IMG/VR virus record: IMGVR_UViG_2563366946_000012
Strand: one strand, 5' to 3'
Origin: a virus
Taxonomy: Duplodnaviria; Heunggongvirae; Uroviricota; Caudoviricetes
DNA: 37,467 nt
How positions within the stretch are numbered: the first letter of the stretch is position 1; every line of letters begins with the position of its first letter. The notes beneath the pieces were generated by a model, which saw only the letters and a list, made by a program, of their open reading frames with translations, did no database searches and had not been told where the DNA came from. The translations under genes and the position numbers were made by a program. Positions 3,954-37,467 of this stretch are shown here, one piece after another.

Positions 3954-5104
3954 TTTTTCTTCTCCTTAATCACCGTCGATGTACTGCCATCCGGGTGATA
4001 AACCGTGAGTTTCTGAGTTTTTTGTTTTTTCCCTCTTGTGACTGGCCCCCGTGCCACTTCCAGCTCTGTGGTGTAGCCGCTGTTACGGTCAAACGCATGG
4101 CGGGCAGTGGTTATGAGCCATGGCCCGGATAACTGCCCAAAACTCACCAGTTCAATTTTGTTGCCTGCTGTCAGTTGAGGTGTTCCCGTCAGCGTCAGGG
4201 AGCCGTTCTGCTGGTATTCGTTATGTCTGGCCAGTGCTGAATCCGCTTTAATCCGGGCACTGTCCGGGTCGCTGACGCGGCTGTTAACTTTAAGTGAGTC
4301 AGCGCTGGTAACCTTACCACCTTTGAGCTTTTTGTCGCTTTCACGGGTACCACCATCAGCTTCGTAGACGATCAGTTTTTTACTGCTGCTTTTCTGGTGT
4401 TTTACCTTTGCAGATTTATAGACCCGGTTGATGGTGTCACGCAGGGAAAAGCGGGCCACATCCTGCGGTTTTAACTGCCTGACCGGCTCCTGACTGCGCA
4501 GTGTGGCCAGATGAGAAAAAATCAGCTGGTCACTGACCACTTTCACTGCATAACCATACTCGCTGGCCAGCCGGCGCAGAAAACCCACGTCGGTTTCAGC
4601 ATACTGGGTCACCCGGTCGATTCTGATGGACTCAATGCTGCCCACCAGTTTCAGTCGGTGCTTTCTGGCAATCCGCCCCGCAACAGCTGCCAGCGTGGTG
4701 TTCTCAAAACCACGACTGGTTTTAGTCCGCAGGGCACTGTTAACCGAGGTGGCCACCCCACGGATAGAAACAACGGAAGCGGGCGAACTCACTTCGATCT
4801 CGTCTATAGAGAACGTACCGCAGGACAGCAGCTTCTCGCCCTGATAGCCCATTTTCAGCGTCAGCGTGTCACCCTTGCCCGGATACCACTTATCCAGCCA
4901 GCGGCCATCGGTGTCGTCCAGCTCCACCTCAATGGTATCGGACTCATTTTTGATGTTATCGCTCCAGGTCACACGGGTGACATAAGGCGCGATATCAGAG
5001 GTGATGTTTTTCTGCAGATACCACAGAGTGAACACCGGTGTCAGCACATCGCTGACGCCGGTTAACGCTGATGTGACTTGCGCAGTGCTGTTTATCTCAG
5101 CCAT
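3950..5104 (-). CDS. Tail protein D / late control D family (baseplate hub, Mu P-like)
   Basis: 384-aa ORF, typical size for gpD-family proteins, located after the gpX-like gene and before the spike. Confidence 0.65.
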   Translation of the reverse strand: MAEINSTAQVTSALTGVSDVLTPVFTLWYLQKNITSDIAPYVTRVTWSDNIKNESDTIEVELDDTDGRWLDKWYPGKGDTLTLKMGYQGEKLLSCGTFSIDEIEVSSPASVVSIRGVATSVNSALRTKTSRGFENTTLAAVAGRIARKHRLKLVGSIESIRIDRVTQYAETDVGFLRRLASEYGYAVKVVSDQLIFSHLATLRSQEPVRQLKPQDVARFSLRDTINRVYKSAKVKHQKSSSKKLIVYEADGGTRESDKKLKGGKVTSADSLKVNSRVSDPDSARIKADSALARHNEYQQNGSLTLTGTPQLTAGNKIELVSFGQLSGPWLITTARHAFDRNSGYTTELEVARGPVTRGKKQKTQKLTVYHPDGSTSTVIKEKKK

Positions 5105-23039: not shown

Positions 23040-23120
23040 AAATGTGGCGGGATACGGATTTTAAACAGCGTTAATAGTGAAGATGTAAACGTGCACTGCA
23101 TGATGACTTTGAAAGAACGA

Positions 23121-23148
23121 CCAGCCCGGTACCCGAACACCGGGCTGG
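23121..23148. promoter_or_regulatory. Perfect 10-bp inverted repeat with 8-nt loop upstream of the late operon (activator site or minus-strand terminator/insulator)
   Basis: ccagcccggt-acccgaac-accgggctgg read directly from the sequence, about 85-130 bp upstream of the holin start. Confidence 0.4.
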
Positions 23149-23194
23149 CCATCGCCCCACAGGAATGCGCTGTGAGCCGACCGAGGTTCAGTCA

Positions 23195-23234
23195 GTCTCG
23201 CGAGACCAGACTAGCCTGCCATATTTTTTATAAT
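23195..23234 (+). promoter_or_regulatory. Methyltransferase promoter region: 12-bp palindrome GTCTCGCGAGAC and consensus -10 hexamer TATAAT
   Basis: Palindrome at about 23195-23206; TATAAT at about 23229-23234, about 20 bp upstream of the ATG at 23254. Confidence 0.45.
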
Positions 23235-23253
23235 TGTAAAAGGCTTACAGATT

Positions 23254-24024
23254 ATGAAAATGCAGACATTACCCATCGTTCCATGGATTGGTGGCAAACG
23301 CCGCCTTGCAAAACACATCCTGCCGTTGTTTCCGGCGCATGAATGTTATGTGGAGCCGTTTTGTGGGGCAGCAGCGCTCTATTTTCTTAAGGTACCCGGC
23401 AAGATCGAAGTCATTAATGATATCAACGGTGAACTGGTGAACCTGTATCGGGTGGTAAAACATCATCTGGAAGAATTTGTACGCCAGTTCAAATGGGCGC
23501 TGGTCAGCCGGCAGATCTACAAATGGCTGCAGATCACCCCGGAAGAAACACTGACGGATATCCAGCGTGCAGCACGGTTCTACTACCTTCAGAAGCAGGC
23601 GTTTGGAGGCAAGGTGGCGGAGCACAGCTTTGGTACCTCCACCATATCCCCGCCACGCTTCAACCTGCTGCGTATTGAAGAAGAACTGTCAGCGGCACAC
23701 CTGCGGCTTTCCAGAACGGTCATAGAACACATGGACTGGCAACAATGCATAGAACGATATGATCGCCCGCATACGTTGTTCTACTGTGACCCTCCATACT
23801 GGGGAACGGAAGGTTATGGTGTGGAGTTCGGACTAGAAAATTATGATCATATGGCAGATTTAGCACGCAGGATCAAAGGGAAGATGATTATATCGGTGAA
23901 CGATATCCCGGAAATGCGGCAGGCATTCAACGGTCTAAATATTCAGTCGGTTGATATCAGCTACAACCTCAAGATCACTGGCAAATCCAGTCGCAAGAAG
24001 GAACTCATTATCCTCAACTTTTGA
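23254..24024 (+). CDS. Orphan DNA N6-adenine methyltransferase (Dam-like, alpha class)
   Basis: N-terminal AdoMet-binding block (VEPFCGAAALYF), C-terminal catalytic DPPY (FYCDPPYWGTEGYG), about 256 aa; no adjacent restriction endonuclease gene. Confidence 0.85.
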   Translation: MKMQTLPIVPWIGGKRRLAKHILPLFPAHECYVEPFCGAAALYFLKVPGKIEVINDINGELVNLYRVVKHHLEEFVRQFKWALVSRQIYKWLQITPEETLTDIQRAARFYYLQKQAFGGKVAEHSFGTSTISPPRFNLLRIEEELSAAHLRLSRTVIEHMDWQQCIERYDRPHTLFYCDPPYWGTEGYGVEFGLENYDHMADLARRIKGKMIISVNDIPEMRQAFNGLNIQSVDISYNLKITGKSSRKKELIILNF

Positions 24025-25219
24025 CCGAATAGTAAGACTTCATGCAGTGAATCAAGTACTGCATGAAGTCAAGGGCTGGTTTTGTGTACCAAAAATAAAC
24101 AGTGATAGCGGTAATAATTCCCATAACTAGAACACCACGTATAATCCAGAACGTACGTTTCTGCGTGTCTAGTCGCGCAGAAATACTGCTAAATACACCA
24201 GCCACGTCATCTTTAATGAAGGAATATTCCTTATTAATCTGTTTTTCTTTGTATTCAATTTCTTCGCCTAAGGCCTTTATAGATTGCATCTGGTTCGAAA
24301 GTGCCAGCCAGATTAACGTTGCAGCAAAAATGCATCCCAGAAGAATTATTGTGTTTGTTATCCCTTGGCCTGACCATTTCGTAGCCACTTTGAATTGGGT
24401 AGCTACGATAACAGAGGCAACAGGAATGCCAAGTATATGGTTCTGGATATCTGAAAACGCTTTGTGGATTTTACCCATTTCTTCGACTTTTGCAGCACGC
24501 AGTTGATCCATTACTTTGTCATAAGAGAATCCAGAAGAGTAGATACGATACCCTTTCAGAAACTTTTCATGCAGACGCTGAATATTGTCCAGTAAATAAG
24601 CGAATACTAGAGGTGAATCAATTCCATCACTAACTGCTTGGATACTTTCAATCAGAATATCTAGCTTCTGATCCTTATGGGTATCATCATTGAAACAAGC
24701 TATAAGGTTATCAAGATACTCTCTTTGCAAATTTTGTACATTTTCTGCAGCGAAGTGCGGTAATAGCTTGATAACTTCTTTTTTCAGAAAAACTAACTGA
24801 CAAGTTGAGTTATCAAAGTAGGCCGCGGCCTCTTTTAGCAGGTTAACGAACTCGAGAATCTTCCGGTAGTTGCTGATGAAAACGGGGATATCTTCATCAT
24901 CATTACGAAACTTTGTTTCTAGGATGAAGTAATTAGCTGGCTCAAGGCACTGATGCTTTGGAGCATTTAGCAATTTTTCATGGGTGGAAAACACAAGTCC
25001 CAGTCCACTCCGTGGTGACGTCACACGTAGGATGATCGTGTTACCTGGAGCGATAGTGCCTGTATCAATAGAAAGACCATATTCACGAGGATCATCAAGC
25101 AAAGTATCAACCAGATCACAATCGGACTGATCTAAGAGCAACAGCGAACCGACACGAAACCCCTCTTGGAATTCCATACGACGATACAGAGCTGTCAGCA
25201 TCTCAAATGAAATCGCCAC
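24014..25219 (-). CDS. Cassette gene 2: protein with large cytoplasmic N-terminal domain and two C-terminal transmembrane helices (candidate effector)
   Basis: 401-aa ORF; hydrophobic helices near residues 295-320 (ITNTIILLGCIFAATLIWLALS) and 360-385 (FWIIRGVLVMGIITAITVYFWY). Start is 2 nt after the stop of the upstream gene; AT-rich by eye. Confidence 0.6.
   Translation of the reverse strand: MAISFEMLTALYRRMEFQEGFRVGSLLLLDQSDCDLVDTLLDDPREYGLSIDTGTIAPGNTIILRVTSPRSGLGLVFSTHEKLLNAPKHQCLEPANYFILETKFRNDDEDIPVFISNYRKILEFVNLLKEAAAYFDNSTCQLVFLKKEVIKLLPHFAAENVQNLQREYLDNLIACFNDDTHKDQKLDILIESIQAVSDGIDSPLVFAYLLDNIQRLHEKFLKGYRIYSSGFSYDKVMDQLRAAKVEEMGKIHKAFSDIQNHILGIPVASVIVATQFKVATKWSGQGITNTIILLGCIFAATLIWLALSNQMQSIKALGEEIEYKEKQINKEYSFIKDDVAGVFSSISARLDTQKRTFWIIRGVLVMGIITAITVYFWYTKPALDFMQYLIHCMKSYYSVKS
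24036..24087 (+). terminator. Rho-independent-type terminator hairpin downstream of the methyltransferase
   Basis: Perfect 13-bp inverted repeat gacttcatgcagt / actgcatgaagtc with 9-nt loop (about 24036-24070), followed by GGTTTTGTGT; overlaps the last codons of the convergent minus-strand membrane-protein gene. Confidence 0.5.
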
Positions 25220-25221
25220 GA

Positions 25222-26229
25222 TTAAACCTCAGTCATCCACATTTCCCTAAATTCTTCAGGTACATTACGTAGGGTGATAATATTTGTTTCCGGATCATAA
25301 TCAATATAGCCTTCAGTTTTCCCTTCCCGGTCAAACTTAAGTTCCCAATATTTAGACTTGCCTTTAAAAGATACCAGAGCCCGAATGACTCGACCATCAG
25401 GAACGAAGCCATCCGATAACTCCAACTCTTCAGCAGCAAGTTTACCAGATAACTCCTCGGGAGCCTGGGGCCAAATGGCATTAACAAGGGTTTCAAGACT
25501 AAGTGGTTCACCAGCCTTACTTAGTGCATGTAAGTGTTCAAACGCACTCTTAAGAAATGCATCTTTTTCAGCGCCGTCAAGTCCTTTCTCTGCCGCAAAT
25601 GCTTTTAAAACGTCACGTAACTTTTCAGACTCTCGTTTGGCGATTAAGACATCATTACAGCCGAGGAACTGTTTAAAATAGTTTGAAACATTACCTTGCC
25701 CCTTAAGAAAACTGATATAGCGCTCTGCGCCACTTTCCCACGCGGTTAAGTCAATGCGCCCAGCCATACGCAGCTTAGCAATATCAAGATAGGTACTATC
25801 TTGGATGTTAAAATCATCTGTGACAGTGGACCCAATGGTAGCGCTTACAATAGCTATCAACAGGTGTTCATTGTGTCCTATCACGATATTTGCAAAAAGA
25901 ACATAACCACCAGTAGCCATGTTTTCTCGCTGAGAACGTTCCGTCAGGTGATGCATCATTCGGCAGGAACTTTGGTAGAAATCATCAACACCTTCGAGAA
26001 AGTCCCCAGCCATTCGTTCCATAGGATAGTTATCCGTATCGCCTTCAAAATAGCCATAACCTTTACCTGTGCGTCCTGCATATTTTGCACAAATATCGTT
26101 TATAAGGCGCTGGGAGGCTTCAGTAACTAGACCTTCTTCAGGACTCAATCTCTCAGAAGCGTCTCCATTTTGTTGTTTGTCTAAAATGTGAACTACAACG
26201 TGTTTAACTTCAATGGTCTGCTCAGACAT
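25222..26229 (-). CDS. Cassette gene 1: YejK/NdpA-like (NA37 family) nucleoid-associated protein homolog
   Basis: 335-aa ORF with blocks recalled from E. coli YejK (…GGYVLFANIV…HLLIAIVS…YLDIAKLRMAGRIDLTAWESGAERYISFLKG…FKQFLG…). Good RBS (AAGGTGGA) before the ATG; begins 70 bp downstream of the repressor stop on the same strand. Confidence 0.55.
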   Translation of the reverse strand: MSEQTIEVKHVVVHILDKQQNGDASERLSPEEGLVTEASQRLINDICAKYAGRTGKGYGYFEGDTDNYPMERMAGDFLEGVDDFYQSSCRMMHHLTERSQRENMATGGYVLFANIVIGHNEHLLIAIVSATIGSTVTDDFNIQDSTYLDIAKLRMAGRIDLTAWESGAERYISFLKGQGNVSNYFKQFLGCNDVLIAKRESEKLRDVLKAFAAEKGLDGAEKDAFLKSAFEHLHALSKAGEPLSLETLVNAIWPQAPEELSGKLAAEELELSDGFVPDGRVIRALVSFKGKSKYWELKFDREGKTEGYIDYDPETNIITLRNVPEEFREMWMTEV

Positions 26230-26299
26230 TAGCTATCCACCTTATTTTTTATTGCTTAATGGCAAATAATTTCTGCTATATGTTCTCGTTAGGAACACA

Positions 26300-26707
26300 T
26301 TAACCCACATTTTTTAACCGCTCAATCGTTGCGGATAATTCCTTCAGTTGTTTTTCCATCTCAATCACACGCTGTTTTTCTTCAGCGCCTCGCATGAGAT
26401 CTCGCCGAACCTCAGGATCTAACTGGTTTAGAAGTTCAAGCATTTTAAGGTCTGACGGGCTGAATTGATGTTGTGTTGGTACAGCAACAATTTCTTTAGA
26501 TGGAATATGTTCTTTACCGGTAAGTAGCCAATCGATCGATACACCCAAATGGGTGCTTAGCGCAACAAGAGCCTCTGCGTTTGGTTCTCTCTCTCCACGC
26601 AAATAGTTTTGAAGTGAGCGATATGGAATTTTTGATAAGTCAGATAATGCCTTTATTGTCATGCCATTAGCATCCATCACTTCACGCAATCTCTCTTTTG
26701 TACTCAT
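26300..26707 (-). CDS. Prophage repressor, XRE-type helix-turn-helix
   Basis: From the internal ATG (MSTKERLREVMDANGMTIKALSDLSKIPYRSLQNYLRGEREPNAEALVALSTHLGVSIDWLLTG…) an HTH-type DNA-binding domain plus C-terminal coiled coil; divergent from the early operon. The track N-terminal extension (TTG start at 26803) is implausible. Confidence 0.7.
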   Translation of the reverse strand: MSTKERLREVMDANGMTIKALSDLSKIPYRSLQNYLRGEREPNAEALVALSTHLGVSIDWLLTGKEHIPSKEIVAVPTQHQFSPSDLKMLELLNQLDPEVRRDLMRGAEEKQRVIEMEKQLKELSATIERLKNVG

Positions 26708-34015: not shown

Positions 34016-34457
34016 ACAACGTCTTATCCAGCTCATTCATATTGCCCGTAATGAACTGGGTATGGATGAAGACACCTACCGCCAGATGTTACAGGGGCTG
34101 ACCGGTAAAGCCTCAACCAAAGGAATGGATACCACACAACTAAACTGCGTGCTGGAATCCATGAAAAGGAAAGGCTTTCGCGTTAAGCCTGCCAGAAAAG
34201 CCAGCTCCGGTTTACCGCTGGATAACCATCCGCAGTCCAGGAAAATCCGTGCGCTATGGCTTGAAATGGCTGCTGCCGGCATTGTTCGTGACCGTTCAGA
34301 AAATGCATTAGCGCGGTGGATCAAGCGGGAAACGGGCATCAGCGCCCTGCGCTGGCTCAATACTGAACAGGCAAGCAGTGTTATTGAGAAACTGAAGAAG
34401 TGGCAGCACAGAGCTGCGGGAGTAAAACATGAGCGACCTGAATCAGTTTCGAAGTAA
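34005..34457 (+). CDS. gemA: GemA-like regulatory protein (Mu gp16 family)
   Basis: MMTKQRLIQLIHIARNELGMDEDTYRQMLQGLTGKASTKGMDTTQLNCVLESMKRKGF… resembles GemA; ATG preceded by AAAGGAG. Confidence 0.65.
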   Translation: MMTKQRLIQLIHIARNELGMDEDTYRQMLQGLTGKASTKGMDTTQLNCVLESMKRKGFRVKPARKASSGLPLDNHPQSRKIRALWLEMAAAGIVRDRSENALARWIKRETGISALRWLNTEQASSVIEKLKKWQHRAAGVKHERPESVSK

Positions 34458-34818
34458 AGGGCCGGAACTCTTGGTGGAGCTGGCACAGCATACCTCTGAG
34501 ACCGTTCGCGAGATTATTGATATTGAGCCCGCAATTGCCGACCAGATTGGTCAGGCCGTCGCGAACCGCATGATGCAGGTCTGGGGCGGGCAAAACGTTT
34601 ATTTCCCGATGGGCATGGTATGGAAGGTCAGTCAGCGCGACCGGGAAATCTTCAGGGAGTTTAACGGACGTAACCACCATGAACTGGCCCGCAAATTTGG
34701 TGTTTCGCTTCAGTGGGTCTACAGCGTGGTTAAGCGGGTAAGAAAAGAAGAACTGGATCGGATGCAGGGCAAGCTATTTGCTGATGAACCCGATGTAGAT
34801 ACGGAGAAAAAAGAGTAA
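34429..34818 (+). CDS. mor: Mor-family transcriptional activator (middle operon regulator)
   Basis: 129 aa; …QVWGGQNVYFPMG…RDREIFREFNGRNHHELARKFGVSLQWVYSVVKRVRKE… matches the Mor/C-family C-terminal HTH pattern; last gene before the prophage end. Confidence 0.75.
   Translation: MSDLNQFRSKGPELLVELAQHTSETVREIIDIEPAIADQIGQAVANRMMQVWGGQNVYFPMGMVWKVSQRDREIFREFNGRNHHELARKFGVSLQWVYSVVKRVRKEELDRMQGKLFADEPDVDTEKKE

Positions 34819-34847: not shown

Positions 34848-37467
<2,620 letters not shown>

Follow-up and report, generated by a model that had tools for sequence, protein, structure and literature searches.

Organisation of the locus

A 37,467-nucleotide stretch of viral DNA (IMG/VR record IMGVR_UViG_2563366946_000012), referred to here in its whole length as the window, was found to be a transposable, Mu-like prophage of Escherichia coli. 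Four genes lie between the late and early blocks of this prophage and encode a Dam-type methyltransferase, a membrane protein (gene B), a nucleoid-associated protein (gene A) and a helix-turn-helix (HTH) repressor (Table 1). The subject of this analysis is the cassette formed by genes A and B, which a first-pass annotation of the window, made from the sequence alone, had proposed as a candidate for a role in phage defence.

The same annotation had described the cassette as two coupled minus-strand genes of 335 and 401 codons with a 2-nucleotide (nt) start offset, and its coordinates proved accurate to the base. Gene A is preceded by a ribosome-binding site (AAGGTGG, 26243-26237) located 7 nt upstream of its ATG. 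The GTG start codon of gene B lies exactly 2 nt past the TAA stop codon of gene A; it is backed by the conserved residues F5 and L8, which are encoded upstream of the first internal methionine, and the RefSeq product (WP_001007984.1) is likewise 401 amino acids (aa) long.

Table 1. Positions of the cassette, of the parts of protein B and of the surrounding features in the window (TM, transmembrane; AF2, AlphaFold2; pLDDT, predicted local distance difference test score; RBS, ribosome-binding site)
Feature	Position	Strand	Basis or remarks
Gene A, 335 aa, NA37/YejK-family nucleoid-associated protein, putative DNA-bound sensor (DS-1A-like, PagA-like)	25222-26229	minus	ATG start
Gene B, 401 aa membrane protein, putative effector (DS-1B-like, Pag2B-like)	24014-25219	minus	GTG start
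Gene B residues 1-210, acidic alpha/beta N-domain, putative cytoplasmic domain binding the nucleoid protein	24590-25219	minus	charge; AF2 pLDDT 79-92
Gene B residues 213-275, long helix	24392-24581	minus	AF2 model; alignment
Gene B TM helix 1, residues ~285-310, followed by invariant N309 and Q310	24290-24367	minus	own and family hydropathy, alignment
Gene B TM helix 2, residues ~352-380, after a ~40-residue polar helical loop and invariant R349, Q353	24080-24166	minus	hydropathy, alignment, AF2
Spacer of 70 nt, repressor stop to gene A start	26230-26299	minus	RBS and short inverted repeat
Prophage HTH repressor	26300-26707	minus	Pfam HTH_3 / Phage_CI_repr; RefSeq 135 aa, start at 26707
Dam-type N6-adenine methyltransferase	23254-24024	plus	Pfam MethyltransfD12 E=7e-28; PADLOC MTase_II E=4e-115
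Late genes (lysis, head, tail)	up to ~23.0 kb	minus	
Early operon	from 26.79 kb	plus	Ner-like, DUF3102, 589-aa transposase, MuB-like ExeA-family, Gam, GemA, Mor

Analysis of protein A

A profile hidden Markov model search bore out the assignment of the first product to the NA37 family: protein A matched Pfam NA37 (PF04245) at E=1e-80 over its full length, covering model positions 1-324 of 325. It also aligned end to end with the solved YejK structure (PDB 9be2; E=6.8e-30). The score against the NCBIfam YejK model (NF001557) was 186 bits and fell under the equivalog cut-off of 341; judged by this score, protein A is not the housekeeping YejK ortholog. An NA37 protein had been considered unexpected inside a prophage, a view that could not be maintained, as both products of the cassette belong to existing phage protein families, protein A to phrog_3767 (E=7e-117) and protein B to phrog_5023 (E=2e-142).

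The first-pass annotation had also known of no named defence system with this pairing, a statement overtaken by the publication in 2025-2026 of DS-1 (PMC13092281) and type II PANGU (10.64898/2026.04.06.716658). DS-1 was validated as anti-phage in the DefensePredictor study, where the 'YejK nucleoid-associated domain' is listed as newly validated in defence (DeWeirdt et al., Science 2026, PMC13092281). Its locus encodes WP_000355468.1 (DS-1A; 391 aa, NA37) and then WP_000150292.1 (DS-1B; 404 aa) (PMC13092281 tables). PANGU was defined as the association of YejK-like proteins with effectors (Li et al., bioRxiv 10.64898/2026.04.06.716658). No mention of WP_000003711 or WP_001007984, the RefSeq accessions of the cassette products, was found in the papers and DefensePredictor tables searched.

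Comparison of protein A with DS-1A by BLASTP showed 23% identity (E=8e-9) in a colinear alignment. The corresponding NCBIfam model, DS1_1_antiphage (NF053868, 'nucleoid-associated anti-phage protein'), matched protein A at E=1.4e-17, with 63.7 bits against an equivalog cut-off of 330.

Analysis of protein B

Protein B had no Pfam domain match. The NCBIfam model DS1_2_antiphage (NF053869, 'anti-phage protein') matched it at E=3e-21 (75.9 bits; equivalog cut-off 315) and matched 76/76 B-family members tested. BLASTP aligned protein B colinearly with DS-1B (E=6e-10, ~23% identity), and an hhalign comparison of the B-family profile with DS-1B gave a probability of 95% over 267 columns. From these alignments, proteins A and B are very probably both homologs of the DS-1 pair. 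Because the scores of both lie under the equivalog cut-offs, the cassette is best classed, by sequence, as a remote sister family and not as DS-1 proper.

An AF2 model of protein B, built on 76 homologs (mean pLDDT 82), consisted of an alpha/beta N-domain, a long helix and two long helices with hydrophobic segments, with a polar helical loop between them. The two C-terminal TM helices predicted in the first-pass annotation were thus recovered in the model as well as by hydropathy, which placed the segments at residues 285-311 and 356-378 when protein B was analysed alone and at ~285-310 and ~352-380 when averaged over the family. Residues 1-265 carry a net charge of -11 (pI 5.1), and residues 1-210 were acidic in 40/42 B-family members and averaged -8 in net charge.

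The most conserved motif of the B family, GY..F.S.FSYDK....KIHK.FSDIQN.ILGIPVA, lies next to the membrane in the long helix, with invariant or near-invariant columns at 223-277, and this motif aligned to DS-1B. At E<=1e-3, 1305 clusters (50% identity) in a profile search of 1.84 billion representatives were related to B, and 410 of these reached E<=1e-30.

Linkage of genes A and B

Conserved co-occurrence of the two genes was found when one genome for each species was scanned with the guidance of a profile, a search that returned 39 loci. An NA37 gene was located immediately upstream and on the same strand in 36/36 full-length B homologs of the scan. Three Cupriavidus loci without NA37 were considered as counter-examples to the pairing and rejected, since they hold 5'-truncated, 208-aa B remnants beside unrelated genes. 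These remnants, found in genomes and on a plasmid (L032:7992-8618, L033, L034), keep the conserved motif and both TM helices.

When loci from other look-ups were added to those of the scan, A and B were adjacent and co-directional in all 49 loci, with a gap of -32 to +14 nt and mostly overlapping. The pair was conserved across Gamma-, Beta- and Alphaproteobacteria, and Sinorhizobium phage phi2LM21 carried it too. Across 42 distinct pairs, the pairwise identities of A were correlated with those of B (r=0.92), a value reached by 0/2000 Mantel permutations. The two genes have therefore travelled as a single unit, in inheritance and movement alike, even where identity in B falls to 24-26%. A phage-borne modulator of host topoisomerases, which had been raised as an alternative, is disfavoured because A is obligatorily paired with a membrane protein.

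A tightly coupled two-gene operon with a small TM module, carried on mobile elements, might also be expected of an addiction or toxin-antitoxin-like module, in which B would be a membrane toxin checked by A and the prophage would be stabilised. We regard this as highly improbable. None of the PANGU single-gene constructs was toxic, and both genes were required for defence (10.64898/2026.04.06.716658); protein A, at 335 aa and with the complete YejK fold, is no small labile antitoxin; and the truncated B remnants of Cupriavidus persist without the NA37 gene.

Prophage cargo context

The GC (guanine plus cytosine) content of the cassette was 39-44%, compared to 55-60% for the phage. Related Mu-like Dam or repressor flanks were found in 535 of 5426 complete E. 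coli genomes; the cassette was present in 19 of these and absent from 516, so it is dispensable for the phage. Among the 19 cassettes, 18 were at least 99% identical and 0/19 were on a plasmid. The cassette-bearing prophage lay at apparently many chromosomal positions in these 19 genomes, as judged from coordinates that were not normalised for assembly start or orientation, and the scatter fits insertion by transposition. One of the 19 carriers is the urine isolate TUM13754, and another is the probiotic strain M-17.

In related prophages the slot between the repressor and Dam genes holds other genes, either one encoding a single 175-aa protein (L002:6126-6741) or an overlapping pair encoding 297 aa and 145 aa (L055:3269-4733). 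The low GC content and a slot with varying contents support the view that the cassette is accessory cargo (a 'moron') in character, as the first-pass annotation had supposed of this immunity region. Neither of the alternative cargos had a Pfam or PADLOC family match, and they may be unknown defence genes.

The position of the pair differed among phages. In Salmonella, Citrobacter and Yersinia lambdoid prophages it is located between the antiterminator gene Q and the holin gene, antisense to the late genes. A Morganella pair occupies the same Q-holin slot and is co-directional with the late genes; late-phase expression of the pair is thus possible in some phages. A Klebsiella Mu-like prophage carries it between the Dam and holin genes, not beside the repressor, and in Paraburkholderia it was found in a non-phage island adjoining an Mrr-type nuclease gene.

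These positions bear on the alternative that the pair serves the phage life cycle, with a nucleoid protein tethered or controlled by its membrane partner so as to act in DNA organisation or compaction during transposition, replication or packaging, or in the timing of lysis beside the holin module. The pair adjoins lysis genes in several phages (the Q-holin or Dam-holin slot), that of Morganella is co-directional with the late genes, and protein A is nearer to housekeeping YejK than to DS-1A. A life-cycle role is nevertheless improbable. The cassette is dispensable, it runs antisense to the late operon in three of four lambdoid lineages examined, the same pair recurs in phages of unrelated type and in an island that is not a prophage, and both proteins have homologs in a pair with demonstrated activity against phage.

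Additional features of the prophage were noted. The Dam gene, which bounds the cargo slot on the side away from the repressor, is convergent with gene B, the two overlapping by 11 nt at their 3' ends (24014-24024). An adenine methyltransferase gene is likewise convergent directly downstream of the pair in phi2LM21 (L054:2806-3718). Because this link is not general in other loci, the adjoining methyltransferase is probably coincidental. Between the holin and Dam genes lies another variable slot, which is empty in the window (23040-23253). In L002 it encodes a 182-aa protein (4402-4950) with a weak match to the PADLOC '2TM effector' model (E=7.5e-5), and in L055 it contains three small unannotated genes (988-2310). 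Beyond Mor (34429-34818), an 839-aa minus-strand open reading frame with a DUF4092 domain extends over 34948-37467, starting at the last base of the window. It probably belongs to the flanking host DNA, in which case the right end of the prophage would lie near 34.9 kb.

Transcription and position in the immunity region

The placement of gene A 70 nt downstream of the repressor gene, on the same strand and with no intervening terminator, was borne out. No terminator-like site was found in the spacer, and the spacer RNA folded no better than shuffled sequence (z=0.30). An inverted repeat, TGTTC-N7-GAACA, is present at 26281-26297, just past the repressor stop codon; it is not followed by a run of T residues and extends to 7 bp in a Mixta homolog (L003). 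The repeat in the gene A leader was not conserved across the cassette family and could be an operator, or functionless.

A leader of ~65 nt was common to close relatives of the cassette, including the Klebsiella Mu-like prophage in which the upstream gene is not a repressor, and such a travelling leader is compatible with the cassette having its own promoter. A scan for consensus promoters revealed just one promoter-like site (9 of 12 positions), located inside the repressor gene. A conserved promoter or operator moving with the cassette was considered and rejected, as no element was conserved across the family and the leader was shared by close relatives only. The sequence of the window would allow the cassette to be transcribed together with the repressor; such an arrangement is not conserved among carriers of the cassette. 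Because other phages place the pair in other slots, linkage to the repressor belongs to this prophage and is no general trait of the cassette.

Superinfection exclusion without cell death was also weighed, in which B would block phage DNA entry at the inner membrane and the NA37 protein would be a regulator or co-factor. The genes lie in the immunity region beside the repressor, a position that some prophage exclusion proteins occupy, and B is a predicted inner-membrane protein with a ~40-residue periplasmic loop. It is not evident why an entry blocker should require a cytoplasmic DNA-binding partner that is obligate and co-evolves with it. Moreover, type II PANGU gave incomplete protection at low multiplicity of infection and growth arrest at high multiplicity, which its authors read as abortive infection (10.64898/2026.04.06.716658). 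With these points set against it, exclusion is an unlikely function for the pair.

Proposed function

The type II PANGU system (PANGU-Ecu), from an E. coli strain called 'upec', is bicistronic and encodes the nucleoid-associated Pag2A and Pag2B, the latter with an acidic DNA-mimic N-domain ('DMK') and a C-terminal TM domain (10.64898/2026.04.06.716658). A Pag2A-GFP fusion was located on the nucleoid and was released upon T4 infection, and the N-domain of Pag2B bound Pag2A with a KD of 19 nM (10.64898/2026.04.06.716658). DS-1 lowered plating of Bas1 by ~7.6 logs, of Bas26 by ~2.7 and of Bas3 and T3 by ~1.7 (PMC13092281, Table S7). With both proteins remote homologs of the validated DS-1 pair, and with a cassette architecture that appears to be that of type II PANGU when compared by described layout, the reading of the pair as a defence or abortive-infection cassette gained support. 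By homology and by analogy, the prophage probably carries in this cassette a two-gene defence against phages, of the class in which a nucleoid-protein sensor is joined to a membrane effector.

A specific chain of events can be drawn up by analogy with PANGU, and it could equally prove right or wrong in its particulars. The lysogen would make the YejK-like protein A together with membrane protein B from the coupled genes, and A would sit on chromosomal DNA. An incoming lytic phage that degrades, disrupts or remodels the host chromosome would deprive A of its DNA substrate, and the freed A would bind the acidic cytoplasmic N-domain of B. The two-helix module of B, probably oligomeric, would then compromise the inner membrane, and the infected cell would stop growing or die before the phage cycle ends, so that clonal lysogens and the prophage they carry would be protected.

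Several observations weigh against a defensive role or against its closeness to the published systems. The cassette proteins share only ~23% identity with those of DS-1, neither comes near the equivalog cut-off of its NCBIfam model, and the first 73 residues of protein B had no alignment to DS-1B. Protein A scores higher against housekeeping YejK (186 bits) than against DS-1A (64 bits) and does not have the N-terminal CxxC...CxxC extension of DS-1A. The acidity of the protein B N-domain is only moderate (net -11). PADLOC v2.0.0 holds no model matching protein A and for protein B returned only a weak match to KwaA (E=8e-5), confined to the TM region and seen in 3-4/76 family members. The layout-based nature of the PANGU comparison and the orientation of the Morganella pair count in the same direction, as does the PANGU preprint leaving open the mode of action and activation of Pag2B (10.64898/2026.04.06.716658).

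If the cassette is active, defence with a nucleoid-protein sensor would be a common cargo of temperate phages (Mu-like, lambdoid and others) and not a property of defence islands alone, and its carriers would be natural lysogens that allow the system to be studied under native expression. The mechanistic value of the subfamily lies in a sensor that is close to canonical YejK, with its solved structure (9be2), and in a large effector family (~1300 clusters at 50% identity) with a sharply conserved motif adjoining the membrane. In combination, these two assets could help to clarify how release of the sensor activates the membrane effector, a step left open in the PANGU preprint. What the locus itself adds is a natural prophage context and the uncharacterised contents of the neighbouring slot; the picture of which kinds of defence systems exist is unchanged by it. 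It is conceivable, if doubtful, that the phage-borne clade of phrog_3767 and phrog_5023 is a separate defence lineage, one that recruited its near-canonical YejK separately from DS-1A and was spread mainly by temperate phages as lysogen-expressed cargo. The repressor-Dam slot would then be an unrecognised defence hotspot and its other cargos further unknown systems.

Comparison with known systems

DS-1 and the cassette are both two-gene operons in which a gene for an NA37/YejK-domain protein comes first and one for a protein of ~400 aa with a hydrophobic C-terminal region comes second. DS-1B and protein B of the window also have in common the motif FS..K...KI..F.S.Q...L.IP.A before TM helix 1. 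The two systems differ in their first protein: DS-1A has an N-terminal Cys4 extension, whereas protein A of the window is without it and is much nearer to canonical YejK.

As described, type II PANGU shares with the cassette its gene order, the coupling of the genes, an N-domain of acidic charge and a C-terminal TM region, which in the cassette is predicted to have two helices. The difference lies in the carriers, as the preprint stresses linkage to defence islands and never uses the word 'prophage' (10.64898/2026.04.06.716658), whereas carriers of the cassette are mainly temperate phages.

Housekeeping YejK/NdpA has an NA37 fold that matches protein A over its full length. In contrast to the housekeeping protein, protein A is encoded by low-GC prophage cargo, has an obligate membrane partner and is found in 19/5426 complete E. 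coli genomes.

Kiwa likewise comprises two genes, for a membrane protein (KwaA) and a DNA-binding protein (KwaB, DUF4868), with the gene order reversed relative to the cassette. A relationship to Kiwa was rejected, given the few family members with a KwaA match and the lack of a KwaB or DUF4868 match in protein A.

Lambda RexAB is also cargo of a prophage immunity region that is expressed with the repressor, and it combines a cytoplasmic sensor with an inner-membrane effector to abort lytic infection. The likeness is a functional analogy only: RexB has four TM helices, RexA is not an NA37 protein, and there is no sequence relationship to the cassette. Set beside all of these systems, the cassette appears from its sequence to be a divergent, mainly phage-borne relative of the published defence class represented by DS-1 and type II PANGU, and not a new kind of system.

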